52,228 bases of DNA, taken from the IMG/VR virus record IMGVR_UViG_3300007276_000008, positions 1-52,228 of that record. The stretch is one strand, 5' to 3'. A program made the position numbers and the translations under genes. Numbering within the stretch: the stretch's first letter is position 1; every line of letters starts with the position of its first letter. The DNA comes from a virus. Its lineage: Duplodnaviria > Caudoviricetes. The notes beneath the pieces are model-generated. The model was not told where the DNA came from. It did not search any database and worked only from the letters and a program-made list of their open reading frames with translations. This document shows positions 5,277-32,818 of the stretch, in pieces.

Positions 5277-5313
5277 TAGGCCGCTCTTTTACTAGGGTGG
5301 CTTATTTTTTTTT
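5277..5313 (+). terminator. Intrinsic terminator
   Basis: TAGGCCGCTC-N8-GGGTGGCTTA followed by a long T run. Confidence 0.7.
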
Positions 5314-5331: not shown

Positions 5332-5364
5332 TTTGGTAGGTATAAAGATAAGTTATATATTTAC
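5332..5364 (+). promoter_or_regulatory. Repeated cassette promoter (Bacteroidota-like -33/-7)
   Basis: TTTGGTAG..TATATTTAC; one of about 13 similar copies. Confidence 0.75.
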
Positions 5365-5388
5365 AGTGTTAAACAAAAACAAAACATC

Positions 5389-6691: not shown

Positions 6692-6967
6692 ATGCAAAAA
6701 TTAGCAAACAGCCTTAAAGGCAAAAAAACTGAAACAACTTTGCGCAACGGCAAAAAACTACAAGGGTACGTGGCAGAGGTAGAGGAAAGGACTTTTCTGT
6801 CAATGGGATTAGACTTAAATATGTCGCCCGAAATTAACACCTGGTCCTTAGTGATTAAGCACTACGATACCAAAATGAAAAGGACAGTTGACTTAGGGCA
6901 TAAGAAGCCCCTGACAGTAGACAATGTTAATGCAGCAATGCCATTGCACAAAGTAAGGTTCATCTAA
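6692..6967 (+). CDS. Hypothetical protein
   Basis: ACATCATG start context. Confidence 0.7.
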   Translation: MQKLANSLKGKKTETTLRNGKKLQGYVAEVEERTFLSMGLDLNMSPEINTWSLVIKHYDTKMKRTVDLGHKKPLTVDNVNAAMPLHKVRFI

Positions 6968-7024: not shown

Positions 7025-7057
7025 TTTGGTAGTTATAAAGATAATATATATATTTAC
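7025..7057 (+). promoter_or_regulatory. Repeated cassette promoter
   Basis: TTTGGTAGTTATAAAGATAA..TATATTTAC. Confidence 0.75.
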
Positions 7058-7094
7058 AGTGTTGCAATGAAGCAGCAAACAAAAAACATCACAA

Positions 7095-8057: not shown

Positions 8058-9557
8058 TTGGAACAGGATAAAATTATAAACTTCCAACCTCAAAAGGGTT
8101 ACCAATTAAGCGCTTTAAGCAGCTCTGCCGATATTGTAATTGGCGGAGGTGCTGCAGGCGTAGGCAAAACCTTTACACTATTATACGAATACCTTAGGAA
8201 TAAGGACGTTAACAATTTTGGTGCAGTTATATTTAGACGCACCTCTCCACAAATAAGGGCTCAGGGAGGGCTATGGGACGCGTCAACGGAGTTATATAGT
8301 TATGTTTTAGATGCTGAACCTAAGCAAACAACGCTGGAGTGGAATTTTGGTGATACGTCAAAGCTAAAATTTAGCCACTTGGAATATGAAAAAAACATAT
8401 ATGACTGGCAGGGTTCTGAAATACCGTTTATTGGCTTTGATGAATTAACGCACTTTTCACAAAAAATGTTTTTTTATATGCTAACAAGGAATAGGTCTAC
8501 TTGTGGTGTAAAACCTTATATAAGGGCTACCTGCAACCCTGACCCTGATAGTTGGGTATCTGAACTAATTGAATGGTGGATAGGCGAAGACGGCTTTCCT
8601 ATACCCGAACGCGAGGGCGTGCTGCGATACTTTGCAAAGGACGGTGACACATTTATTTGGGGCGATACGGAACAGGAATGCGTTGACAAGGCATGGTATT
8701 TTTTAAAGCCATTAGTGGAGCGCAGCAACATTGACCCAAAACACTTTGTAAAATCACTTACATTTATTGGTGGTGATATTTATGACAACAAGGCACTGCT
8801 AGACACCAACCCTGATTACCTAGCAAATTTAGCATCACAGGATGAACAAACCAGGTTGCAGCTATTAGAAGGAAATTGGAAAGTAGCATTAAACCCACAG
8901 GACGTTTATCCATACCTTGCGTTTAAGGACTTTTTTACTAACAAGTGGGTTCCTACAGGACTAAAATGTATTTCAGTAGATGTGGCTATGTCAGGTGCCG
9001 ACAAATTGATTATAATGTACTTTGACGGCAAGCGCTTGGAGGATATTGCAGTAATACCAAAGTCAAGTGGAAAAGACGTGCTGGACCAAATACAGTTAAT
9101 GCAAAACAAATATGGTGTACCTAATAGCAAAGTGACGTATGATGCAAATGGAGTAGGTGCATTTATAGGAGGGCAGGACAATGCATTTATACCTGGCTCA
9201 GAAGCATTTTTTAATAATGGGCGCATGAACTTTCAAGCTAATGACCCTAGGAAGTTTAAAAATTTAAAGGCGCAGTGCTATTTCTTAGATGGCGAGGACG
9301 AGGAACAATACATTTCTGAAAAAGTTGCAAACACCATGTATGACAATAAAATGACAGTTAGGCAAAGGTTTTTATTTGAGCGTAAAGCAATAAAGAAAAA
9401 AGCATTAATTGACGAGGAGCCGCTGCAAACAATTAAAAAAGATGAAATGAAAGAGAAGTGGTTAAGTGGCGACAGTCCAGATTTAATGGACGCGTATATG
9501 CAAAAGCGCCTATTTTACTTGGATAGGTACGAAAGTTTAGACGTTGATTGGAATTAA
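8058..9557 (+). CDS. terL: Terminase large subunit
   Basis: Walker A GGAAGVGKT, Walker B FIGFDE, coupling motif ATCNP, RNase H-like nuclease (SVDVA..YDANGVG..SPDLMDA); TTG start. Confidence 0.93.
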   Translation: MEQDKIINFQPQKGYQLSALSSSADIVIGGGAAGVGKTFTLLYEYLRNKDVNNFGAVIFRRTSPQIRAQGGLWDASTELYSYVLDAEPKQTTLEWNFGDTSKLKFSHLEYEKNIYDWQGSEIPFIGFDELTHFSQKMFFYMLTRNRSTCGVKPYIRATCNPDPDSWVSELIEWWIGEDGFPIPEREGVLRYFAKDGDTFIWGDTEQECVDKAWYFLKPLVERSNIDPKHFVKSLTFIGGDIYDNKALLDTNPDYLANLASQDEQTRLQLLEGNWKVALNPQDVYPYLAFKDFFTNKWVPTGLKCISVDVAMSGADKLIIMYFDGKRLEDIAVIPKSSGKDVLDQIQLMQNKYGVPNSKVTYDANGVGAFIGGQDNAFIPGSEAFFNNGRMNFQANDPRKFKNLKAQCYFLDGEDEEQYISEKVANTMYDNKMTVRQRFLFERKAIKKKALIDEEPLQTIKKDEMKEKWLSGDSPDLMDAYMQKRLFYLDRYESLDVDWN

Positions 9558-9580: not shown

Positions 9581-9612
9581 TTTGGTAGTATTAAAATAAA
9601 CTGTATCTTTAC
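9581..9612 (+). promoter_or_regulatory. Repeated cassette promoter
   Basis: TTTGGTAGTATTAAAATAA..TATCTTTAC. Confidence 0.75.
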
Positions 9613-9640
9613 AGTGTTAAACAATATAAAACATCACAAA

Positions 9641-11260: not shown

Positions 11261-12271
11261 ATGACAGACGATATCAAAAAGCAAATTGATGACATAGCTT
11301 TAAACTTGCCAGAATTTGCGTTTAAAAAAATTGACCAACATTTGCTGCTTGAAGAAATCACATCAGGCAAAAACATTAAAACAGCAAAGCTACCTAGGAT
11401 ATACCAAATGGAAACCACGTCACGCTGTAATTTAGCCTGCCCGTTTTGTCCACGCACTACGGATTTGGTTGCAAACGGAGTAAGGGATTTAAAATCCACT
11501 ATGCCATTTGAGGACTTTGTAAAAGTGTTGGATAAGATGCCTTGGTTAAAGTCACTTGAACTGTTTCACTTTGGTGAACCTTTTATGCAAAAGGATTTTG
11601 AAAGGTACGTGCAGGAATGTACTGACAGAGGTATTTATACAGTTGTAGCAAGTAATTTATTACCGGCAACTCCAGCAAAAATAGACAAGGTTTTTGCAGC
11701 AGGATTAGACTTTTTAGTAATGGACGTTGACAGCTTAGACCCTGAGAAATACGCATCAATGCGCGTAAACGGTAAGTTGGAGAGGCTGCAACCTATTGTA
11801 GAATACATTTTAAACCACCCTGAGCGCCCTTATACAGTTGCGCAAACTATTAACATAGACGGTGTAAAAGAATACACTGAAGAGGAGTTTTTGAAGTGGA
11901 GTAATGGTGCAATGCCAGATGAAATACGATATAAATTCCTGGACAGTTTTAGAGGTGAGATAGCACCTGAAAAAGGTACACTAGGACCTGATGATGTTTG
12001 CAAGGAAGCATTTTACGGATTTACAGTGCATGTAAACGGAAACGTCGTAGTTTGTGACAGGGATTGGGGGGGTGAGAATGTGATGGGTAATATATTTGAG
12101 CAAACAGTTGACGAGATATGGTGGGGAGATAAGTTTCAGGAGTTTAGGCGCCAAATGTTATCTGACGAGAAACCTGACATGTGTAAAAAGTGTCCGGAGG
12201 GTCGTTTGTTTAATGCGCGCAGCCAGGACCACATACAGGTAAACATGTTTAAAGGATTAGAAGTTGAATAA
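11261..12271 (+). CDS. Radical SAM enzyme with SPASM/twitch domain
   Basis: CNLACPFC (CxxxCxxC), FGEP, and C-terminal C..GNVVVC..GNIFEQTVDEIW..CKKC. Confidence 0.92.
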   Translation: MTDDIKKQIDDIALNLPEFAFKKIDQHLLLEEITSGKNIKTAKLPRIYQMETTSRCNLACPFCPRTTDLVANGVRDLKSTMPFEDFVKVLDKMPWLKSLELFHFGEPFMQKDFERYVQECTDRGIYTVVASNLLPATPAKIDKVFAAGLDFLVMDVDSLDPEKYASMRVNGKLERLQPIVEYILNHPERPYTVAQTINIDGVKEYTEEEFLKWSNGAMPDEIRYKFLDSFRGEIAPEKGTLGPDDVCKEAFYGFTVHVNGNVVVCDRDWGGENVMGNIFEQTVDEIWWGDKFQEFRRQMLSDEKPDMCKKCPEGRLFNARSQDHIQVNMFKGLEVE

Positions 12272-12287
12272 ATAAAAACCAAACCAA

Positions 12288-13289
12288 ATGAAAATATTTT
12301 ATATTGCACTTGAAAACATTGAACAGCGTTATACACCAATGATGAATAATGCGCTGTATGATTTAGTTGACAAAGTAATTTACCCGGAATTTAATTATCC
12401 TGAGGTAATTGAAACGGGACAATTTTTAGACGTAAACAAAACCATAATTTTTAAGTCCTTGCAGTTGCATGATATTGCTCAACTGTTTTACAAAAACGAG
12501 GTTGAAAGTGGTGATGTCTTTTTAGTAGGTGACATATTTTTTCCTGGCATTGAATCCATAAAGTATATGTCTGAACTACAAAATTTAGACGTAAAAATTT
12601 ATGCATTTAATTACGCAGGCAGGAGTGACAAAACTGACTTTGTTCGCAAGCTAGGCAAGTGGGCTGATTATAGTGAACAAGGTTACCACGAGATATGTGA
12701 CCGTATATTTGTTGGCAGCGAATTCCACAAACAAAATGTAGTTAGCTACTTTAATATTGACCCTAACAAAGTAATGGTTACCGGTTATATATGGGATAGG
12801 AGTTTTGTTGCAAGTATTTACAACGTCAAAACGCCTACGGGTGACCAAGTTATATGGCCACACCGTTTGAGCAAGGAGAAGGGCTTAAATGACTTAATAT
12901 CCTATGCAGTTTTAAACCCTAAGCAAAAAATAGTTGTAACAAGCTGCGGCAATAAGGTTGACATGCGTTTACCTGACAACGTTGAATACAAATATAATTT
13001 GACAAAAGCTGAATATTATGAAGAATTAGCATGGTCCAAATATTACCTAAGTACTGCATACCAGGAAACGTTCGGATACACTTTGCAAGAGGCAATACAT
13101 TTTGGTTGCGAAATTGCAGTACCAAACAGGGCATGCTATCCTGAAATGGTACCAAGTGAATGTTTATACGACAAAATTGAGGACGTTAAATTTCACAAAG
13201 TGCCAAAATACCACACTGAAAAGTGGAACAATAATGCAAAAAATATATTAACCATAATCACTAAAGATGCATATAATAGTCGCAGGTAG
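12288..13289 (+). CDS. Glycosyltransferase, GT-B fold (GT4-like)
   Basis: HRLSKEKG and ETFGYTLQEA (E-x7-E)..YPE motifs. Confidence 0.88.
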   Translation: MKIFYIALENIEQRYTPMMNNALYDLVDKVIYPEFNYPEVIETGQFLDVNKTIIFKSLQLHDIAQLFYKNEVESGDVFLVGDIFFPGIESIKYMSELQNLDVKIYAFNYAGRSDKTDFVRKLGKWADYSEQGYHEICDRIFVGSEFHKQNVVSYFNIDPNKVMVTGYIWDRSFVASIYNVKTPTGDQVIWPHRLSKEKGLNDLISYAVLNPKQKIVVTSCGNKVDMRLPDNVEYKYNLTKAEYYEELAWSKYYLSTAYQETFGYTLQEAIHFGCEIAVPNRACYPEMVPSECLYDKIEDVKFHKVPKYHTEKWNNNAKNILTIITKDAYNSRR

Positions 13290-14064
13290 TAACACAAATA
13301 ATTCAGCCGGAATGTGTAAGGAGTTAGGGCTGTTTAAATTACATAGTATTTTAAATGAGAAAAAGGATATTGAGAATTGGGACGACAAGCACTTTTTAAT
13401 GGTTGACAGCGGTGCTCATAGTTGGAATAAGGCTCACATGCACCACGTTGGAATGAAGGGTAAAACAAAGCTACCTGACCCTAAAGTGTTTTTGGAAACT
13501 TACATTAAATTTATTAAAAAGCACGCGCACAAAAAATTGGTGTTTGTGGAGTTTGATGTGTATGGCAATTTACCGTATGATTATATCACTGCAAAGTATA
13601 ATGAAATAAAAGCAATACCTGGCAACTTTAAAATAATGCGCGTGTACCACCAAATGCTTGACGGAGGGTCATTACGCGTGTTAAAGGAGTGGATAAATGA
13701 GGGGCAGGATTATATAGGAGTAGGTGCTGATTGCGCGCCAATATTTGATGACGTGTTCGCACTTACAAAAGATAAAGTAAAACTCCACGGATTTGCAATG
13801 ACAAAGCTACCTTATATTACCAAATATCCGTTTTGGAGTGTTGACAGCACCTCGCCTTTAAGCACTGTAATTTTTGGTAGGTACAGCAAACCGGTATTTA
13901 ACTTTAAAGGGCGCGTTGACGTGCATAAAGAAAAGTCAATTGAATGCTTTCACGAGGATACGGAAAGGCTTAGGAACGCACTAATTGAAACAAAAGAAAC
14001 TGAAGATTATATAACAGCATTATGGAAAAAACGACAAGTAATATGGGAAGAATTGAAGTATTAG
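13267..14064 (+). CDS. dpdA: DNA 7-deazaguanine transglycosylase (DpdA/TGT-like)
   Basis: LMVDSGAHS, EFDV, RVYH, YIGVG, KLHGFAMT and SVDSTS motifs of the TGT-like barrel; clustered with folE/queD/queE. Confidence 0.85.
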   Translation: MHIIVAGSNTNNSAGMCKELGLFKLHSILNEKKDIENWDDKHFLMVDSGAHSWNKAHMHHVGMKGKTKLPDPKVFLETYIKFIKKHAHKKLVFVEFDVYGNLPYDYITAKYNEIKAIPGNFKIMRVYHQMLDGGSLRVLKEWINEGQDYIGVGADCAPIFDDVFALTKDKVKLHGFAMTKLPYITKYPFWSVDSTSPLSTVIFGRYSKPVFNFKGRVDVHKEKSIECFHEDTERLRNALIETKETEDYITALWKKRQVIWEELKY

Positions 14065-14561: not shown

Positions 14562-14593
14562 TTTGGCAGTATTAAAATATTGTATATCTTTAC
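14562..14593 (+). promoter_or_regulatory. Repeated cassette promoter
   Basis: TTTGGCAGTATTAAAATA..TATCTTTAC. Confidence 0.75.
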
Positions 14594-14628
14594 AGTGTAA
14601 TAATAAATTAACTTAAAATTAAAACATC

Positions 14629-21533: not shown

Positions 21534-21565
21534 TTTGGTAGTATTAAAATAAAGTATATCTTTAC
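21534..21565 (+). promoter_or_regulatory. Repeated cassette promoter
   Basis: TTTGGTAGTATTAAAATAA..TATCTTTAC. Confidence 0.75.
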
Positions 21566-21594
21566 AGAGTAATAATAATTTAAAATCAAACATC

Positions 21595-22284: not shown

Positions 22285-22512
22285 ATGAGTAGAAACAAAT
22301 ACAAAACGCATGCCAAAAAAACGGAGAAGCAAGGCGATGATAGTTTTGCAGCCAAAGCAGCATTTTTCTCCTTAGTAGGTTTAGTCTTAATAATTGTATT
22401 TTTAAAATTCAGAGAAATGAGCCCCGAACACCAACTTACAGCAACCGTTATCATTATCGCATGCAGTTTGGCTGCATTTATATATATTAAACTTAAAAAC
22501 CCTTTAGAATGA
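22285..22512 (+). CDS. Small two-TM membrane protein
   Basis: Two hydrophobic segments. Confidence 0.6.
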   Translation: MSRNKYKTHAKKTEKQGDDSFAAKAAFFSLVGLVLIIVFLKFREMSPEHQLTATVIIIACSLAAFIYIKLKNPLE

Positions 22513-22652
22513 AGAAACCAATTAAAAAGCATTAACAGCAAAAACAGAGGCATGATAACAGTAATTGACAGCGACACGCAATTAACAATTGGCCTAGTAG
22601 TTTGCATGCTGGTAATATTAGTAGGCTATTATATTAAAAGCATATTAAAAAA

Positions 22653-22841
22653 ATGAGAATGCAAATAACAACCAAGGAAGTCCATAAGAATGGGCGTGTG
22701 GACGTAATCACACCAGAACAGGAAATTGACTGTTGGACAGTAGGACACGCAACTGAAGTAATATTCCAACTATTGGATACTATCGCAGTACTAAAAAAAT
22801 TTATAGACGACAAGGAAGCGCTAAAAACAAAAACAAAATGA
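22653..22841 (+). CDS. Hypothetical protein
   Basis: Coupled to the next ORF. Confidence 0.55.
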   Translation: MRMQITTKEVHKNGRVDVITPEQEIDCWTVGHATEVIFQLLDTIAVLKKFIDDKEALKTKTK

Positions 22842-23089
22842 AAAAAATATTTATATTATTATTACCTATTACATGTTTGTTAGGATGTGATACCGATGAT
22901 TCATATTCTACTAGATGCGAGGAGTTATTGAATCACTTCAGGATGGAAGTTCTTTACACGGAACTCACATATGACCAAGCTATAGATAGCGCTATAATTC
23001 GCGAGATATATGAAGATTATTATGACGCTGGTACAGACCATGGGTGCGTAGTTAGGGATAAGTATACTGAACTTAATTTTTTAAGATAA
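22838..23089 (+). CDS. Small lipoprotein
   Basis: MKKIFILLLPITCLLG-CDTDD lipobox followed by an acidic stretch. Confidence 0.65.
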   Translation: MKKIFILLLPITCLLGCDTDDSYSTRCEELLNHFRMEVLYTELTYDQAIDSAIIREIYEDYYDAGTDHGCVVRDKYTELNFLR

Positions 23090-23118
23090 TAAATGTATAA
23101 AAACTAAAACACAAAAAT

Positions 23119-23271
23119 ATGGCAATAAAAGTAAAGGCAGACGGAGAACCAAACGTTTGGATAATATTTGACGACAAGGATAATTGGTTAGCAAAGGTAC
23201 AGTTTAATGGTGAAGTAACAGTGCCAACGCAACAAGAGCTCTTAAATGTAGTTATACAGGCATTAATTTAA
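23119..23271 (+). CDS. Hypothetical protein, 50 aa (not in ORF track)
   Basis: MAIKVKADGEPNVW..; A-rich start. Confidence 0.55.
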   Translation: MAIKVKADGEPNVWIIFDDKDNWLAKVQFNGEVTVPTQQELLNVVIQALI

Positions 23272-23351
23272 AAAACACCAATCTAGTGCAAGGCAAGCAG
23301 CCTAAACCTGATAACAAATAAAGTATTATATTAAAAAGGAATTACGATACT

Positions 23352-23927
23352 ATGGAACTACTACCTAAAGAAATAGCAAAGGACTTTAAAAGCAAAAGAC
23401 AAATACTATTTATTCAAGAATACGTAAAAGACCGTAATGGTACACAGGCAGCAATAAGGGCAGGATATACTAAAAAAAATGCAAAAGTGTCAGCGTCACA
23501 ACTGCTAACGAAGCCTAACATACAAAAGGGTATTAACTACCTTTATGAGCAAATTAGGATTAGAAATGAGGTGGGAATTGATGAAGTCATAGCTGTCTTA
23601 GCGTCACAATTACGGTTTGATATTGCGGAGTTGTTTGATGAGAATGACAATTTAAAAAGCGTTCATGACATACCTTTGCACATGCGTAATAGTATAGAAG
23701 AGATAACGGTAAACGAGATATGGGAACATGACAGGGACGGCAATAGGATACAAACGGGCGTCACTAAAAAGATTAAAACAGCAAGCAGGCAAGGTGCTGC
23801 TAAAATGTTATTGCAGCACTTAGGCGCGTTCGCAAAGCATAACAAGCAAAAGCGTACTCAGGTAGCAGTTTTTAACATGCCTGACAATAATAGGGTAATA
23901 AATGTAAAAGAAAATGAAGAAAATTAA
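23352..23927 (+). CDS. terS: Terminase small subunit
   Basis: RQILFIQEYVKDRNGTQAAIRAGY..ASQLLTKPNI is the classic TerS HTH signature. Confidence 0.92.
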   Translation: MELLPKEIAKDFKSKRQILFIQEYVKDRNGTQAAIRAGYTKKNAKVSASQLLTKPNIQKGINYLYEQIRIRNEVGIDEVIAVLASQLRFDIAELFDENDNLKSVHDIPLHMRNSIEEITVNEIWEHDRDGNRIQTGVTKKIKTASRQGAAKMLLQHLGAFAKHNKQKRTQVAVFNMPDNNRVINVKENEEN

Positions 23928-24013
23928 AAAAAAATTATCCTAGTGTTTACGGAGCCTGAGTCAGCATTATACACGCGATAGACAAAAAAGATTTGAATTA
24001 TTTTTAGATAATG

Positions 24014-24046
24014 TTTGGCAGTTAGTAAGATAAGTTATATATTTAC
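24014..24046 (+). promoter_or_regulatory. Repeated promoter driving the non-coding unit
   Basis: TTTGGCAGTTAGTAAGATAAGTTATATATTTAC. Confidence 0.75.
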
Positions 24047-24102
24047 AGTGTTAAACAGTAATAAAAGTTCTTAAACATATTGAAACAACAAAGCAAGTAA
24101 AC

Positions 24103-24201
24103 TGGTAACGATTGGCGTCTGACCTCAACACTATCTTATAACTTGCTTTTTTAAATAACAGTTGAATTGGTAACGATGGGCGTCTGACCTCCACACTATC
24201 T
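24103..24201 (+). repeat. Two 34-nt direct repeats (24103-24136 and 24168-24201)
   Basis: TGGTAACGAT(T/G)GGCGTCTGACCTC(A/C)ACACTATCT; 32/34 identical. Confidence 0.9.
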
Positions 24202-24940
24202 CAGGAACTGTAAATTAAAAACCCTGGACAAACTTTGTATTTGGCAGTAACATTTAAAACAAACTTGGTGGAAACCTCTTCGGAGATAAAACAATTCCAA
24301 TGGAAACAACAAAATGTGAATAGCTGAATGTTTGGAAACAAATTTACGAAAGGAGCAAATTAGGAAAGTTGCAAGATGCAGCAAGTACGACGCTAGGGTT
24401 TTTTTTTTAAATATATAATTTTAGCAATAGTAAGTAAGTGGTTATTCGGAATAGCACCACGTAAAACTATACACCGAGGAAAAAAGTAGGCTATATTGCA
24501 AAATTACAATTTAAAAAGTGCGCTGAATTATTTGTTATTACAGTAAGGAAAGTAGGATAATTTTTTTAGGAAAATTTTAAGGTAGCGTTATTAGAGTTAC
24601 AACGTTAAAAGGTCGTTCCTTTTTAGGCTCATGCACCATTATAAGTCTTATAAGTACTGAATTATTAACTATACAGTAGGCGCGCTTTTTTACAAACTTA
24701 AAAAAGTGCAACGGAGTTGATGCGCTTTGGTTATAACTGCAATGTAAAGACATTATAAGTTTCAAGCTAATGGACAAACAGTCCTACACCTTAGGGTTTA
24801 TGTTAGTGTTCCTTATAAGCAGCCAAAGAGAAGTAAATGACTAATTACCATTTGCAGCATTTAAACAAGTACGAAGTCGGCCACTTCACGATTATAGCAC
24901 GGAAATATAGGCCAATGCATTCCCCAGATTAATAGCAGTT

Positions 24941-24970
24941 AAGGCTCACTTTAAATAGTGGGCTTTTTCT
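24941..24970 (+). terminator. Intrinsic terminator of the non-coding unit
   Basis: AAGGCTCACT-TTAAAT-AGTGGGCTTT followed by TTCT. Confidence 0.75.
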
Positions 24971-25116
24971 GTTTAGGAAAGTTTTCAAGAAAATGTTTGG
25001 TAGTTGTAAAGATAGTTCGTAATTTTATTGTTGGTGCTCTGCTCTGAAATTTGCATGCTCCATTATTACTATATATATATAGTGTAAAAATTAATTTGCT
25101 TTTTTTCATAAATAAA

Positions 25117-25148
25117 TTTGGCAGTATTAAAATAATTGCTATCTTTAC
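25117..25148 (+). promoter_or_regulatory. Repeated cassette promoter
   Basis: TTTGGCAGTATTAAAATAA..TATCTTTAC. Confidence 0.75.
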
Positions 25149-25189
25149 AGTGTTGCAATATTGCAGCTATAATTTAAACATCACGCATC

Positions 25190-25615
25190 ATGAAAACATC
25201 AGCACAAATTGTTCAAGATTTAAAATCAGAATTAGACAACTCCATTAACCATTTGCAAAAAGACATTTCGCATCATATGGAGAGATTAAACAGCAACTTT
25301 TTATTCAACGCCAAATGGGTGTTTGAGGATACGCTAAAAAGCAACCTTAAATTAAAGGAATTAAGTTTGTTATTGGAAACACTACACCAAGAGGATATTA
25401 CAAAGTCCAACGGAGAGGTTTTAAAGGGTACAGACCAGAACAGACTACTTTGGTTCAGACAAGCTGTAAAACACTTAGAAGCGTTTACCTCTAAAAGCCA
25501 CAACGTAATGAGCAGCTCAACCTGTTCAGTTACTAACTTACAAACCACATTGACATTTATGGTTAAGTTAGAGGTTCAAGAGGAAATGAATCACTTACTA
25601 AATTTTTACTCATAA
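25190..25615 (+). CDS. Hypothetical helical protein
   Basis: Follows the promoter; ACATCAC..CATCATG start. Confidence 0.7.
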   Translation: MKTSAQIVQDLKSELDNSINHLQKDISHHMERLNSNFLFNAKWVFEDTLKSNLKLKELSLLLETLHQEDITKSNGEVLKGTDQNRLLWFRQAVKHLEAFTSKSHNVMSSSTCSVTNLQTTLTFMVKLEVQEEMNHLLNFYS

Positions 25616-25812
25616 TGTATGTCAAAAACGACAAGGTTAGTTATACAATTTCCGAACTAAACGGAGGCGGGGAGTGGGTTCAAGTGCAATACCAAGGAAC
25701 TATTTCCCGCATAATCCAAGCGCCAAACGGGCTACAAATAATGGAAACTAACCACGGGCATAAACTGCATATAAGGAACTCAAAACTAAACAACGATGAC
25801 AAATCCATATAA
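25615..25812 (+). CDS. Hypothetical protein
   Basis: TAATG coupling. Confidence 0.6.
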   Translation: MYVKNDKVSYTISELNGGGEWVQVQYQGTISRIIQAPNGLQIMETNHGHKLHIRNSKLNNDDKSI

Positions 25813-26083
25813 AACTAGGTGTTCGTGCTGTTCAGCGCATGTATCGTTAACAGCGCGCGACTTACCAGGCAATAACGATAGTGAAGGTAATTTGTGTGAA
25901 TGCTGCTACGGTGAGCATGAATTGCAAGCATGGCTGGAGATGCATAACATGTTTGATTTAATTGCAAAAGCAATAAGGAGCCCTATAAGCGCTTTAAAAT
26001 GGCAATACAGCTCAGACGCTGCAAAATGGTATCACTGCCAACAGTTAATGCGGAGAGGTGTAATAAAGTGGCAAATATCATAA
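25796..26083 (+). CDS. Cys-rich putative Zn-finger protein
   Basis: CSCC..CECC. Confidence 0.6.
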   Translation: MTNPYKTRCSCCSAHVSLTARDLPGNNDSEGNLCECCYGEHELQAWLEMHNMFDLIAKAIRSPISALKWQYSSDAAKWYHCQQLMRRGVIKWQIS

Positions 26084-26092
26084 AACAAAATT

Positions 26093-26314
26093 ATGAAAAT
26101 TAAATTAGTAGAGGAAACAGAAGAAACTATTAGAAAAAGGAACAATGAAAGACTTGTTTTAGAAAGTATGGAATTGCACGAAATGATTGACATAGGTGAT
26201 AGGTTTAATAGCTATAAGGTTATGCGTGTCCATGGTGGTTGGCTATACACATATCACAGATTAGACAAAAGTATAATGACAACAACATTTGTTCCTTTTA
26301 ATCAAAATGGTTAG
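26093..26314 (+). CDS. Hypothetical protein
   Basis: A-rich start; co-oriented. Confidence 0.65.
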   Translation: MKIKLVEETEETIRKRNNERLVLESMELHEMIDIGDRFNSYKVMRVHGGWLYTYHRLDKSIMTTTFVPFNQNG

Positions 26315-26319
26315 TAGTT

Positions 26320-26475
26320 ATGAAAGAATTACAAAAATTAAAAGAGGAAGTAAAAGAAGCAAGGCAATTAATGGTTTGGCATAGACCTAATAAAGATGCG
26401 ATAGGTACAATGTATTACTATTGGGAAGAAAAAAAAGACAATGCTTTGCGTAAAATAAATGAGTTAAGAAATTAA
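26320..26475 (+). CDS. Hypothetical protein, 51 aa (not in ORF track)
   Basis: MKELQKLKEEVKEARQ..; fills the gap between neighbouring genes. Confidence 0.55.
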   Translation: MKELQKLKEEVKEARQLMVWHRPNKDAIGTMYYYWEEKKDNALRKINELRN

Positions 26476-26492
26476 ACTAAACAAATAGAACA

Positions 26493-26879
26493 ATGAAACT
26501 AACAGAAAAGTGTAAAAAGGATTTTGAGAAGTGGTATTTTAAACATCATGTAACAACAACTAAAAAGTTTAAAGATTTATACCCACATGAGTATCATGAA
26601 ATATATGATTGGTTTTATGGTATTGATTTGTCTTTTCAATACGGAGTGTATGTAGACTTCTTTGATAGTGTTGGAATTATAATTGATATTCAACCTTTAT
26701 TAGATTATGATGATAAACAATATACTAATATTTATAGTGTTTATGGAAATATAATTAAGTTAAATTTTCCACAAGAAGAGAATTATAACAGAAACCCTTT
26801 TGAATGCAAAACACGCCAAGAAGCAAGAACAAAAGCAATAGAAAAAGCTGATGAAATATTTAATTCACTAAACAAATAG
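26493..26879 (+). CDS. Hypothetical phage protein
   Basis: Aromatic-rich; flanked by a 21-bp direct repeat. Confidence 0.7.
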   Translation: MKLTEKCKKDFEKWYFKHHVTTTKKFKDLYPHEYHEIYDWFYGIDLSFQYGVYVDFFDSVGIIIDIQPLLDYDDKQYTNIYSVYGNIIKLNFPQEENYNRNPFECKTRQEARTKAIEKADEIFNSLNK

Positions 26880-27578: not shown

Positions 27579-27610
27579 CTTGGCAGTGTAAAAATGTTTT
27601 ATATCTTTAC
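27579..27610 (+). promoter_or_regulatory. Repeated cassette promoter
   Basis: CTTGGCAGT..TATCTTTAC. Confidence 0.7.
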
Positions 27611-27641
27611 AGTGTAATAATAACTAAAAATATATAAAATT

Positions 27642-29043: not shown

Positions 29044-29076
29044 TTTGGTAGTTAGTAAAATATGTTATATGTTTAC
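29044..29076 (+). promoter_or_regulatory. Repeated cassette promoter
   Basis: TTTGGTAGTTAGTAA..TATGTTTAC. Confidence 0.7.
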
Positions 29077-29114
29077 AACGTTGTAACAAAGCAACACCAA
29101 AAACATCACATTTT

Positions 29115-29783: not shown

Positions 29784-29815
29784 CTTGGTAGTATTAAAAT
29801 AAACATTATCTTTAC
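29784..29815 (+). promoter_or_regulatory. Repeated cassette promoter
   Basis: CTTGGTAGTATTAAAATAA..TATCTTTAC. Confidence 0.75.
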
Positions 29816-29850
29816 AGTGTAATAATATTTTAACCCTTAATTTTTACATC

Positions 29851-31099: not shown

Positions 31100-32818
31100 G
31101 TGTCTAAACAATTCCTAGTAGATAATGTCAATAGTACTGCTTTGGTGGAAGCCCGCAAGCAGGCTAAACAAATAGCCTATCTAACACAATCATCCATACA
31201 ACAAGAAATTACCGCTGCATACCTAAACCAATGGGCTGAACGCAATTTTGTAGGTACGGATTATTTTTTAAATTGGGTAAAAGCTGTTTTACGAACTGAA
31301 AATTTCCTACACTTTTATAAGTACTTTAGGCATCCTATTGCAAGTTCAGCAGTTATAAACAACAAAATTTTGCCAGCATTGGAACGCGTTTTTTTTGCTG
31401 ATGACAGTTACTTTAGGTACAATATTGGTAATGAAGAGGTAACAAGTGTAGAGGAACTAGGCAGTCCTGAGTTTGATGAAGTAGTATTTGAAGCAGTTAT
31501 ATTTAGGCATAATGACATATTTTGGTATGACTACGAGGATATAAACAAGCCTATACGCAAACTAATTGATATTGAAAATGTATACGCAATTGATTGTGGT
31601 AGGAATGACATTTACCAAATTGCTATTAAGGGCGTGCATGAGGGCAAAGCAGTAATAATTTATGCAAACCAAACGGAGTATATTATTTATAATTACGCTT
31701 TTGAACCTTTAGCAGTTATACCACACGATTTAGGATTATGCCCGGCTGACTTTGTTAGCAAAGACCCGTTAAATTCCAAAAAAAATAATGTAGTAAGGAA
31801 AAGTTTATTTTCATATTCAATTGAAAAGCTAGAGGAGTACGTATTCCTAAAAACATTGCAGCGCATGACAGAGGCAAATGGCGCCATTCCAATTACTACG
31901 GAAATAAAATCTGACAAAAAGAAAACAGAAGGTGAGCAAGCAAAAGCGCTACCCGCTGAGCCAATGTCTACCGCACTTATAAAAGGTCACAATGGCGAGA
32001 TAGCCGGCAACGTTTTAGGACAGCAAAGCGACAACGTATTAATGGCTGGAACGCGTATTAAAATACCACCTATTAGGAAGCAAGACGGTTCATATGATAT
32101 GGACGCAATTAAGCATTTCGTCAACTTTTTTTACACGCCAATTGAAGCGTTGGAATACCTAAATTCACGCGTTGAAAACATTGAAAAGGATTTAATGATT
32201 GACTTAATTGGTGATTATAGCGAAGACAATGAAGCAGCAAAAAACGTTTTACAAGTAAGTAAAGGATTTAAAAGCAAGCAAGACAAGTTACGGAAGCAGT
32301 CAGAATTGATGTCGTGGTTGCGCACGCGCTCGGATAAAAAAATGCTGCTTATGCTATTAGCCAACCAAAATATAACAGTAGAAGGCACGTACGGAACTGA
32401 TTTCTTTTTGGAAAGCCAACAGGAATTGTATAAAATGTTTGCTGAAAGTCCAAATGCAATTGAGCGCAAAAGCATATTAATTAGGTTAGTAAGGAACAGG
32501 AATAAGGACAATATTAAGCGAGGGGAGAAGGACGAATTAATGTATAAATTATTGCCTTTTGCAAGCGATATTGACTTTGACAAAGCATTAGAATATAACA
32601 AAGTAGGAGATATAACTTTTCAAATGCAAACAAGGATGGACTATTATTTGTCTATTTTTGAAAGCAGGTACGGTGATATTTGTTACTTTTACAACATGTT
32701 AGAAAGTGAAGAAAGCGTAAGGTTAGTAACCATTTCTAATTTATTAATTAACATAATAAAAGAATATTATGAAAAACCAGAAATCCCAGAAGGCAGTGTT
32801 ACACCTGAGAGTGTATAG
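31100..32818 (+). CDS. Putative portal protein
   Basis: 572 aa, first gene of the head operon, IPHDLGLCPA motif (like portal H.lG.vP); GTG start. Confidence 0.7.
   Translation: MSKQFLVDNVNSTALVEARKQAKQIAYLTQSSIQQEITAAYLNQWAERNFVGTDYFLNWVKAVLRTENFLHFYKYFRHPIASSAVINNKILPALERVFFADDSYFRYNIGNEEVTSVEELGSPEFDEVVFEAVIFRHNDIFWYDYEDINKPIRKLIDIENVYAIDCGRNDIYQIAIKGVHEGKAVIIYANQTEYIIYNYAFEPLAVIPHDLGLCPADFVSKDPLNSKKNNVVRKSLFSYSIEKLEEYVFLKTLQRMTEANGAIPITTEIKSDKKKTEGEQAKALPAEPMSTALIKGHNGEIAGNVLGQQSDNVLMAGTRIKIPPIRKQDGSYDMDAIKHFVNFFYTPIEALEYLNSRVENIEKDLMIDLIGDYSEDNEAAKNVLQVSKGFKSKQDKLRKQSELMSWLRTRSDKKMLLMLLANQNITVEGTYGTDFFLESQQELYKMFAESPNAIERKSILIRLVRNRNKDNIKRGEKDELMYKLLPFASDIDFDKALEYNKVGDITFQMQTRMDYYLSIFESRYGDICYFYNMLESEESVRLVTISNLLINIIKEYYEKPEIPEGSVTPESV

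Follow-up and report, generated by a model that had tools for sequence, protein, structure and literature searches.

The window, by which we mean the whole stretch of 52,228 nucleotides analysed here, is a complete 52-kb phage genome of freshwater source. Directly downstream of terS, which encodes the small terminase subunit, an ORF-free gap of 1.26 kb extends from 23928 to 25189 and contains, 160-280 bp downstream of terS, a pair of hairpins that an earlier note had picked out as a tandem RNA motif with no ORF behind it (Table 1). The latter claim was borne out, as the 400 nt that follow the promoter in front of the pair contain no start of an ATG ORF of at least 35 amino acids (AA), and the sole plus-strand ORFs behind that promoter are of 30 and 28 AA with TTG starts. 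Neither tRNA nor tmRNA genes were found in the window or at the Flaviramulus prophage locus described below, no cas-like family was found among those window ORFs that were scanned, and PF10902 (WYL_2) is absent from the window phage.

Table 1. Features of the hairpin locus and its surroundings, in window positions.
Feature	Position	Strand	Remarks
terS, small terminase subunit gene	23352..23927	+	PF03592 E = 1.7e-31, phrog_51 E = 1.2e-31
Promoter of RNA gene	24015..24047	+	one of a 10-copy phage promoter family
Non-coding RNA, ~330-350 nt	24052..24398	+	start predicted from promoter, end from RNA-run contigs
Hairpin unit 1	24090..24149	+	9-bp closing stem, 42-nt conserved interior 24099-24140
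Covarying inner pair	U24113-A24127	+	G24178-C24192 in unit 2, G-C in Flaviramulus copy
Hairpin unit 2	24158..24211	+	6-bp closing stem, 42-nt interior 24164-24205
3' domain of RNA	24212..24398	+	no recognised motif
T10 run	24399..24408	+	likely transcription stop; longest T run in genome
Next promoter-family copy	25118..25149	+	serves ORF 25190-25615

The promoter, which has TTTG as its -33-like element (24014-24017) and TATATTTA as its -7-like element (24038-24045), belongs to a family defined by the pattern TTGGYAG-N13-19-TATNTTTACA, which matched the window ten times, always on the plus strand, against 0.01 matches expected, and which may resemble the Bacteroidota promoter consensus, TTTG/TAnnTTTG. 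Nine of the ten copies have an ATG ORF within 24-41 nt behind them, whereas the copy in front of the hairpins has none within 400 nt. From the predicted start site to the first hairpin is a distance of about 40 nt, and a possible long-range pairing of 24211-24225 with 24395-24409 (an inverted repeat of 15 nt, 87%, also seen in the MFE fold) may close the 3' domain, for which no relatives were found among phage records or terL-homologue records. Seven T runs of at least eight occur in the genome and only one of them reaches ten; that T10 run has no local GC hairpin before it, unlike the T runs at 5305 and 6997. Because ORF 25190-25615 has its own promoter, the RNA is not simply the leader of that gene.

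Contigs from all three metatranscriptome runs, which come from 2017 freshwater studies and may represent one campaign, matched the stretch without a single differing letter (24070-24396, 24169-24398, and 24192-24396), and all of them end 1-3 nt short of the T10 run. The contig 24070-24396 runs unbroken through both hairpin units and is followed by an adapter-like loose end. Two of the three runs cover nothing further in a stretch of 4,001 nt, the uncovered parts of which are not evidence of silence. Such contigs give neither strand nor level, DNA can occur in RNA libraries, and contig ends are not RNA ends, so that the starts at 24169 and 24192 were not taken as 5' ends; we infer the plus strand from the promoter and the T run, as well as the exact ends of the RNA. 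The near-confinement of the RNA-run contigs to this stretch points to an expressed non-coding RNA with two hairpin modules in its 5' part. Very probably, the phage transcribes this RNA of about 330-350 nt independently, with two irregular hairpins of about 60-66 nt in its 5' half. In a DNA run almost no cover was seen at 24108-24375, a hole that proves nothing. Loose ends in the DNA run at 24057, 25117, and 25153 were considered as signs of strain mosaicism and rejected as such, since they are identical to what adjoins two other copies of the promoter, near 5356 and 14585, and therefore represent assembly jumps at a shared 31-mer rather than variants.

The core that the earlier note reported as recurring 65 nt apart is a direct repeat of 37 nt (24100-24136 and 24165-24201; 92% identical), and a 28-nt pattern drawn from it matched the window at these two copies and nowhere else, with 0.00 matches expected from 100 shuffles. 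The accompanying claim of only two differences, complementary to each other, holds over 34 nt (24103-24136) and fails over the full 37 nt, where C24102T is added to T24113G and A24127C. Each core also lies, as had been proposed, within a stem of its own and of different sequence. In unit 1, AAAGCAAGT (24090-24098) is paired with ACTTGCTTT (24141-24149), the 3' arm of which is overlapped by a U6 at 24147-24152, and in unit 2, ACAGTT (24158-24163) is paired with AACTGT (24206-24211) in a stem that can be extended to 24148-24163 with 24206-24221, AT-rich and with two mismatches (16 nt, 88%). The two stems are in register, each enclosing 42 nt. A flanking stem of at least 9 bp at a 42-nt gap occurs at one of 52,138 window positions, which is unit 1 itself, and one of at least 6 bp occurs at 21 of them.

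A third copy of the hairpin was found, as a single copy, in a prophage in a Flaviramulus genome. It has an unrelated closing stem of 10 bp, again around an interior of 42 nt, which is identical to that of unit 1 at 39 of 42 positions; a 10-bp stem at a 42-nt gap was found at one of 59,910 Flaviramulus positions. The copy lies between two genes of the prophage early operon, following the first ORF of this operon, which diverges from a cI-like repressor gene, and it is 3 kb downstream of the prophage terS-terL. Between the end of its closing stem and the ATG of a WYL_2-domain gene there are 15 nt, without a terminator. The motif aside, DNA likeness between the two phages amounts to 68-78% identity, nearly all of it in tail genes, and the proteins common to both are 32-68% identical. 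By blastp of the window phage against the prophage (E < 1e-3), only RecT, an exonuclease, a 105-AA protein, and tail proteins were matched, and the TerS proteins of the two gave no alignment at E < 1.

All copies found thus number three, in two related genomes, and for this reason the near-identity of the interiors could in part be due to common ancestry or exchange and not to function. The closing stems of these three copies are unrelated in sequence, made of Watson-Crick pairs only, and set around exactly 42 nt in each case. Seven of ten closing-stem pairs changed on both sides across the copies, and 94% of the closing-stem cells pair, as compared with 41-48% when the partner is slid, with none of 500 shuffles reaching the observed values. 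A homologue had been proposed as the place to look for further covariation, and the Flaviramulus copy shows it in its closing stem. With a third unrelated stem around the same interior and covariation on this scale, the claim of selection on RNA structure at the hairpin is supported.

Within the interior, one pair changes on both sides and the other ten are invariant, so the inner fold has the standing of a prediction. RNAalifold independently returned a matching structure, in which the covarying pair falls within a predicted inner helix (U-K-G-G / U-C-M-A) below the CGUCUGAC-containing tip, and the predicted upper part is a simple bulged rod with that tip and with no junction or pseudoknot. 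The folding energy was no better than that of shuffled sequences (z = -0.57 over 146 nt, z = +1.10 over 357 nt), and hence structural support comes from covariation and not from folding energy. We regard it as highly likely that the hairpin is a portable module, composed of a closing helix of free sequence and a nearly invariant upper part of 42 nt.

Searches for relatives returned the Flaviramulus copy and little else. Against Rfam 15 no part of the window reached the gathering score of any family, in agreement with the earlier view that this is not a recognised riboswitch or ribozyme. With E up to 10, nothing reached half the gathering score in 23900-25250, in 24050-24410, or in the Flaviramulus locus (6770-6870), no plus-strand match lay over any hairpin interior, and the small self-cleaving ribozyme families (hammerhead, twister, pistol, hatchet, hairpin, and HDV-like) gave no match. 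No close DNA relatives of the 2.1-kb region were found in 50,697 phage records, and the 131-nt pair used as a query returned chance matches only (E = 5) from phage records. Scans with motif patterns, as exact patterns only, gave no matches in viral contigs and none in metagenome contigs; one viral-contig match to a tandem-tip pattern was rejected as an unrelated coding repeat inside a 367-AA ORF. Relatives sought through terS, the 141-AA ORF, the portal, and tail-protein alignment led to no confirmed locus in viral contigs. The covariance-model search that the earlier note had recommended recovered the Flaviramulus copy alone, in one of 151 Flavobacteriaceae genomes, and found no match at E up to 1 in the 41 records obtained by a terL search (41 loci, 34-62% identity), in which no gap sequence was similar beyond chance either. 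Scores of this model for unit 1 (89.7 bits) and unit 2 (78.6 bits) are high by construction. A 33-nt pattern with up to three mismatches matched only the Flaviramulus prophage among 401 Flavobacteriaceae genomes, a sample that probably overlaps with the 151. Of 185,579 species, each represented by one genome, this prophage alone carried a 23-nt core pattern, once and outside any array. Homologues of WYL_2 occur in 33 phage records, and at the five other WYL_2 phage loci checked the hairpin was absent in every case (best E = 0.21, plain stems without the interior), so the prophage context gives no general clue. The motif was not found in the literature by words of 13-14 nt, the matches being unrelated judging by titles and abstracts.

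Coding on the minus strand and antisense roles were also considered and found no support. Between the minus-strand ORF 24051-24194 and the corresponding Flaviramulus ORF, 18 AA are alike solely through overlap with the motif, and the 65-nt period places the two units in different frames. For pairing within the phage itself, the longest complement to the plus strand is 12 nt, as compared with 11-19 nt for shuffled RNAs, and for the host no 18-nt site with up to three mismatches occurs elsewhere in the Flaviramulus genome on either strand.

The location of both loci raises the question of a site acting at the DNA level, such as an operator, a pac or cos site near terS, an origin element, or a cruciform, with transcription being incidental. 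In the window the pair follows terS at 160-280 bp and in the prophage the single copy follows terS-terL at 3 kb, and closing stems that are all Watson-Crick would form in DNA too. We nevertheless consider such a site very improbable: compensatory stem changes serve no purpose for a protein that binds the duplex, the TerS proteins do not align at E < 1 in spite of 93% identity at the site, dyad symmetry in the core is limited to GTCTGAC, the two predicted inner G-U pairs would mismatch in DNA or on the opposite strand, and the stretch appears enriched in RNA libraries.

The earlier note had also suggested mimicry of a CRISPR repeat or of a type III antitoxin, in which case the hairpin, as a Racr, a solitary unit, a mini-array, or an antitoxin repeat, would soak up a defence protein. 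Like Racrs as they have been described (PMC10651486), the RNA lies directly behind a promoter, has no link to cas genes, and turns up in RNA libraries, and the tandem cores have a repeat-spacer-repeat geometry of 37 + 28 nt. Neither form of the suggestion fared well, however. The core was never seen in an array and was found only in the prophage (185,579 species; 401 and 151 Flavobacteriaceae genomes), in scans that a CRISPR repeat less than about 85-90% alike would escape. The genome of the prophage host, the one known host, is without Cas1, and Rfam CRISPR-DR models matched nowhere on the core, the one weak match, of 19.4 bits where the gathering score is 50, lying next to it. The conserved 42 nt fills the space between the stems, unlike a repeat, and there is no head-to-tail array, no downstream toxin ORF, and no look-alike in the host. 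Mimicry of either kind therefore has, in our estimate, a very slim chance of being correct.

A somewhat less remote reading, still improbable, is that of a cis-acting antitermination signal of the put or nut type, by which the hairpins, alone or together with Nus factors or a phage protein, would let RNA polymerase pass terminators and the short RNA would be a terminated by-product. It would suit hairpins that come about 40 nt behind the presumed start of transcription and a prophage copy at the nutR/putR position, after the first ORF opposite the cI-like repressor gene. A boxA-like GUUCUUAAACA at 24067-24077, 12 nt before unit 1, would suit it also, with an 8/11 match to a 16S-leader element (common to 2/3 Flavobacteriaceae 16S leaders), but 8/11 is weak in AT-rich sequence and no comparable boxA precedes the prophage copy. 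The RNA contigs, moreover, stop at the T10 run right behind the hairpins, the next gene has its own promoter, and no shared N-like protein was found by blastp between the two phages.

RNase III cuts intercistronic sites of T7 early mRNA, and the hairpins could by analogy serve processing or stability, as bulged rods of about 23 bp that are cut or bound by a host endoribonuclease, which would release the 3' domain as a mature RNA and uncouple the two prophage cistrons. The predicted long irregular hairpin of about two helical turns and the intercistronic position of the prophage copy are consistent with this reading, and two of the three RNA contigs start inside unit 2 (24169 and 24192). Against this, contig ends are not RNA ends, these two starts differ from each other and have no loose end, and the remaining contig is unbroken through both units. 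RNase III needs little sequence, which would leave the 42-nt invariant block unexplained, and we consider this reading, with the release and uncoupling that it implies, unlikely.

In a further reading the interior would be a self-folding core with a P1 of free sequence, either a small-molecule aptamer, in tandem as some riboswitches are or serving as a ligand sponge, or a new small self-cleaving ribozyme. A variable P1 around a near-invariant core is the classic picture of such RNAs and the copies stand in tandem. Orphan ribozymes are typically found in phage and prophage intergenic regions, where these copies also lie, and no Rfam family matches them. The predicted structure is, however, a simple rod with no junction or pseudoknot, the window offers neither an expression platform nor a regulated ORF for an aptamer in a riboswitch, an RNA contig spans both units uncut, and the interior shows a single covariation. 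We therefore see a core of this kind as having a small probability.

The reading that we favour, tentatively, builds on the third copy, the position of which just before a gene suggests a binding site in RNA that can probably be re-used. It may be a protein-binding module that serves as a decoy in the phage RNA and as an operator before a gene in the prophage, a proposal to which we give somewhat less than an even chance. The upper part of the hairpin would be a sequence-specific binding site for a protein, two tandem sites in an abundant RNA would titrate that protein as a decoy or sponge in the fashion of CsrB/RsmZ, and in the prophage a single site near the start codon would let the same protein control the translation or stability of the mRNA. 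An interior identical at 39 of 42 positions amid DNA likeness of otherwise 68-78% counts as constraint and speaks for this proposal. An invariant block of 42 nt, on the other hand, exceeds what most protein sites need and would suit an aptamer or ribozyme core at least equally. No small protein is common to both phages beyond those of recombination and the tail, so the partner is more likely to be a host factor. To our knowledge, Bacteroidota are without RNA-binding regulators of the Hfq/CsrA type, and CsrA is not known there. The bolder version, in which the hairpin represents a new class of phage decoy, a high-affinity mimic that titrates a conserved RNA-binding or defence protein of Flavobacteriaceae, is deployed in two copies in an abundant early RNA, and is re-used singly in the prophage as a translational operator, is doubtful at present.

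Very little has been charted of the structured non-coding RNAs of Bacteroidota phages, and little is understood of how this phylum exerts post-transcriptional control. The hairpin described here is a compact and testable object, of about 60 nt with a covarying closing helix, of which two copies belong to an RNA found in environmental RNA libraries and one precedes a prophage gene. If the protein-binding proposal is true, its partner could turn out to be an RNA-binding protein or a defence factor of the host that phages target, whereas ligand binding or self-cleavage would make the hairpin a new aptamer or ribozyme class.

Among known systems, the resemblance to several is partial. ToxI antitoxins, in which repeats of 36 nt follow one another head to tail immediately ahead of a toxin gene, are, like the hairpins, repeated structured RNA units in or near phages; the phage units, however, are 65 nt apart with no ORF behind them, and the prophage copy is single. 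The T7 early region has RNase III hairpins that are irregular, about 50-60 nt long, and repeated between cistrons, whereas the upper 42 nt here are nearly invariant across two phages. In HK022, the two stem-loops of put RNA suppress termination through a cis effect on RNA polymerase. In lambda nut sites, boxA is followed by the boxB hairpin, with an N-like protein (PMC10250234). Common to put/nut and our copies are hairpins soon after an early promoter or first gene beside a repressor, with shared sequence and covarying stems, but the phage RNA appears to end at the T run and its boxA-like word is weak. As regards a riboswitch, with its conserved aptamer and expression platform in the 5' leader of a regulated gene, the window has no downstream ORF, and in the prophage the stem ends 15 nt before the ATG with no terminator.

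Racrs are phage-encoded, highly expressed small RNAs directly behind a promoter and unlinked to cas, for which protein titration was proposed (PMC10651486). Our RNA resembles them, or a solitary repeat unit, in its promoter-proximal position, in the lack of cas genes nearby, and in being a small RNA in libraries, and differs in that likeness to a host CRISPR repeat was not found and a covarying helix closes off the conserved block. It differs from a CRISPR mini-array as well, in which conservation would end at the repeat borders, since unit 1 and the Flaviramulus copy share the whole 42-nt interior and since, in all three copies, the flanking sequences pair in register. For CsrB/RsmZ RNAs, the differences are that the element is carried by a phage and has only two copies, of about 60 nt with a conserved part of 42 nt, rather than a short GGA loop. 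That type is defined by several copies of a protein-binding hairpin in an abundant RNA and by the same hairpin at translation starts of target mRNAs; observed here were two copies within an RNA seen in 3/3 runs and one copy before one start codon. The likeness comprises an independent, abundant non-coding RNA, a repeated hairpin, and the same hairpin near the start codon of an mRNA.

A repeat search of the window returned two direct copies of a 37-nt sequence, at 24100-24136 and 24165-24201, which are spaced by 65 nt and agree at 92%. A 28-nt core pattern had two matches in the window, both at these copies (expected 0.00 from 100 shuffles). The duplicated core with its own stem around each copy, as described in the earlier note from the sequence alone, agrees with the window sequence; the two complementary differences counted there hold over 34 nt, but the 37-nt repeat has three (C24102T, T24113G, and A24127C), of which the last two are complementary. 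That description missed that both closing stems are in register, with exactly 42 nt inside each (the interior), 35 of which are identical between the two copies, units 1 and 2. At this spacing a stem of at least 9 bp occurs at 1 of 52,138 window positions, which is unit 1 itself, and one of at least 6 bp at 21 positions; the unit 2 stem can be extended to 16 nt, AT-rich and with two mismatches.

The record is that of a complete virus (52,228 bp with terminal repeats) in which all large ORFs lie on the + strand and the hairpin pair occupies an ORF-free gap. The packaging genes are unusually split, with terL 14 kb from terS and the portal gene a further 7 kb on. Elsewhere, three adjacent ORFs at 11261-14064 gave weak PHROG matches to radical SAM, glycosyltransferase, and queuine tRNA-ribosyltransferase proteins (E = 1e-6 to 1e-12) and may form a DNA-base modification module.

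A promoter-like element, TTGGYAG-N13-19-TATNTTTACA, which we take to resemble the Bacteroidota TTTG/TAnnTTTG promoter consensus, had 10 matches, all on the + strand and confined to 5-30 kb of the window (expected 0.01). Nine are followed within 24-41 nt by an ATG ORF of at least 35 aa; the tenth, at 24015-24047, precedes the two hairpins, and the 400 nt after it contain no such ORF. A separate copy at 25118-25149 precedes ORF 25190, the next one downstream. A promoter-like copy, the hairpins, a run of ten T (T10), and a separate downstream promoter are the anatomy of a separate non-coding RNA gene. The promoter-like copies have up to 31 nt in common, and k-mer assemblies can jump between them, as in the DNA run X9. 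A perfect 15-bp inverted repeat (23928-23942 and 24553-24567), starting directly after the terS stop codon, brackets the promoter and RNA gene; it may show where a cassette was inserted, or it may have arisen by chance, the DNA being AT-rich. In the remainder of the gap (24409-25117), likewise free of ORFs, a hairpin at 24941-24966 resembles a terminator, a weaker copy of the promoter lies near 25020, and a 151-nt contig of the metatranscriptome run X10 covers 24750-24900; a second small RNA is possible there.

Coordinates of the features discussed (window positions unless another locus is named)
Feature	Position	Remark
terL	8058-9557	
terS (small terminase)	23352-23927	PF03592, E = 1.7e-31
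ORF-free gap with hairpin pair	23928-25189	starts directly after terS
Unit 1 closing stem	24090-24098 with 24141-24149	inverted repeat, 9 bp
Unit 2 closing stem	24158-24163 with 24206-24211	inverted repeat, 6 bp
T10	24399-24408	longest T run of the genome; about 350 nt downstream of 24015-24047
Portal gene	31100-32818	
Promoter-like copies, + strand	5333-5365, 7026-7058, 9582-9613, 14563-14594, 21535-21566, 24015-24047, 25118-25149, 27580-27611, 29045-29077, 29785-29816	
X10 RNA contig	24070-24396	no other letters
X14 RNA contig	24169-24398	no other letters
X15 RNA contig	24192-24396	no other letters
Prophage hairpin region (Flaviramulus)	L065 6118-7188	= G042:C5:270118-271188

The stretch was present in several freshwater DNA runs and partly in three metatranscriptome runs (X10, X14, and X15) from three studies, which share year and habitat and possibly one campaign. 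We compared the RNA-run contigs, which indicate neither strand nor level, over 22500-26500 (4,001 nt). The RNA with the two hairpins was almost the sole part of this 4-kb stretch present in the three libraries: X14 and X15 left the rest without cover, and X10 added two 151-nt contigs (23270-23420 and 24750-24900). All three RNA contigs end 1-3 nt short of T10, and the X10 letters past 24396, presumably Illumina adapter, suggest that many fragments end there. RNA libraries can contain DNA, but uniform carry-over would not pick out the same 330 nt three times. We regard it as very probable that a structured RNA is expressed here and that the hairpin is a module repeated within it. As to how the hairpins work, a role in nuclease processing or stability is unlikely.

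A third copy lies on a contig of an uncultured Flaviramulus sp., the sole place found by exact-pattern scan among 185,579 species with one genome each; scans of viral and metagenome contigs gave 0 places. Its 10-bp stem (AACACTGCTC / GAGCAGTGTT) is unrelated to either window stem and again encloses 42 nt, identical to unit 1 at 39/42 and to unit 2 at 36/42, and its covarying inner pair is G-C, as in unit 2. On the three-row alignment of these copies, both sides changed in 7 of 10 closing-helix pairs and 94% of cells paired, falling to 41-48% when the 3' partner was slid 1-3 columns; none of 500 column shuffles reached the observed values. Unguided RNAalifold predicted the same closing helix and inner rod, and the closing helix is thus well supported by the alignment. 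Within the 42 nt one pair covaries and ten other predicted pairs are invariant, so the inner fold is a prediction; we propose a possible extra pair between interior positions 1 and 39 (A-U, G-C, A-U), which would give a second covariation. Folding energy showed no excess over shuffles (z = -0.57 and +1.10). An aptamer or ribozyme core in this interior is, to the same degree as nuclease processing, an unlikely reading.

The Flaviramulus copy sits in a prophage, where terS and terL are followed by a minus-strand cI-like HTH gene and, diverging from it, a + strand operon of an 89-aa ORF (phrog_6004), the hairpin, a WYL_2 (PF10902) / SH3 beta-barrel ORF (phrog_1086) whose ATG is 15 nt past the closing stem, and a Bro-N gene. 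The hairpin is not generally tied to WYL_2 genes: the window phage has no PF10902 gene, and the hairpin was absent from all five other phage WYL_2 loci compared. In Bacteroides phage BS-TP2 a WYL_2 homologue is the first gene beside the regulator, which suggests a possible place for this family in the immunity region. The prophage is collinear with the window phage but only distantly related to it (protein identity 46% for the exonuclease, 44% for a 105-aa protein, and 36-68% for tail proteins). DNA similarity outside the motif is 68-78%, nearly all in tail genes, against 93-95% in the hairpin interior. Near the hairpin, the two phages have no small protein in common at E < 1e-3, nor among the + strand matches listed at E < 1, and their TerS proteins gave no alignment. 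A site in duplex DNA is unlikely, with little probability in our estimate, because compensatory changes in the flanks would serve no purpose there, dyad symmetry is missing from the core, and the TerS differ while the site is constant.

Several other identities were weighed. The motif is not a tRNA, an antisense role against genes of the phage itself had no support (complements were no longer than chance), and the Flaviramulus genome contains no near-match or complement of the RNA elsewhere. A tandem repeat at 920-990 of viral contig L064, with the 11-nt tip word twice, is a protein repeat in a 367-aa minus-strand ORF, unrelated to the motif. The earlier guess of a CRISPR-repeat mimic gained no support, as no array in the species and Flavobacteriaceae genomes scanned carries the core (a mimic less than about 85-90% identical to its model would escape), the prophage host has no Cas1, and the conserved block fills the inter-stem space. 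Nor is the locus a ToxI-like array, with two units 65 nt apart and no toxin ORF behind. An anti-defence mimic is given a very low probability. Two features lie just before unit 1, within 24067-24102. One is a weak, sub-threshold Rfam match to CRISPR-DR22 that includes AUUGAAAC; it scores 19.4 bits where the gathering score is 50 (E = 0.12-0.46), within chance for AT-rich sequence. An antitermination signal of the put/nut type could draw on a weak boxA-like word there (24067-24077, GUUCUUAAACA), matching at 8/11 an element in two of three Flavobacteriaceae 16S leaders compared and also within chance for such sequence, but transcription appears to stop at the T run that follows, and we consider this improbable.

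Four facts call for explanation: the closing helix is free in sequence around a near-invariant 42 nt; the RNA present almost alone in three libraries contains the hairpin twice; the prophage copy stands 15 nt ahead of a start codon; and the phages have no common protein to bind it. Their simplest reading, which we favour tentatively, is a module that would bind a host protein, the two copies in the RNA serving as a decoy and the single prophage copy as an operator before its gene. The hairpin is rare and narrowly distributed, with three copies in two related genomes across the viral, metagenome, and genome collections scanned. The earlier note did not recognise it as a known riboswitch or ribozyme, and it is absent from Rfam 15 and from the literature searched; as a new RNA motif it is well supported and testable. 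Phage non-coding RNAs with repeated hairpins are a known kind; the present hairpin is new among them.
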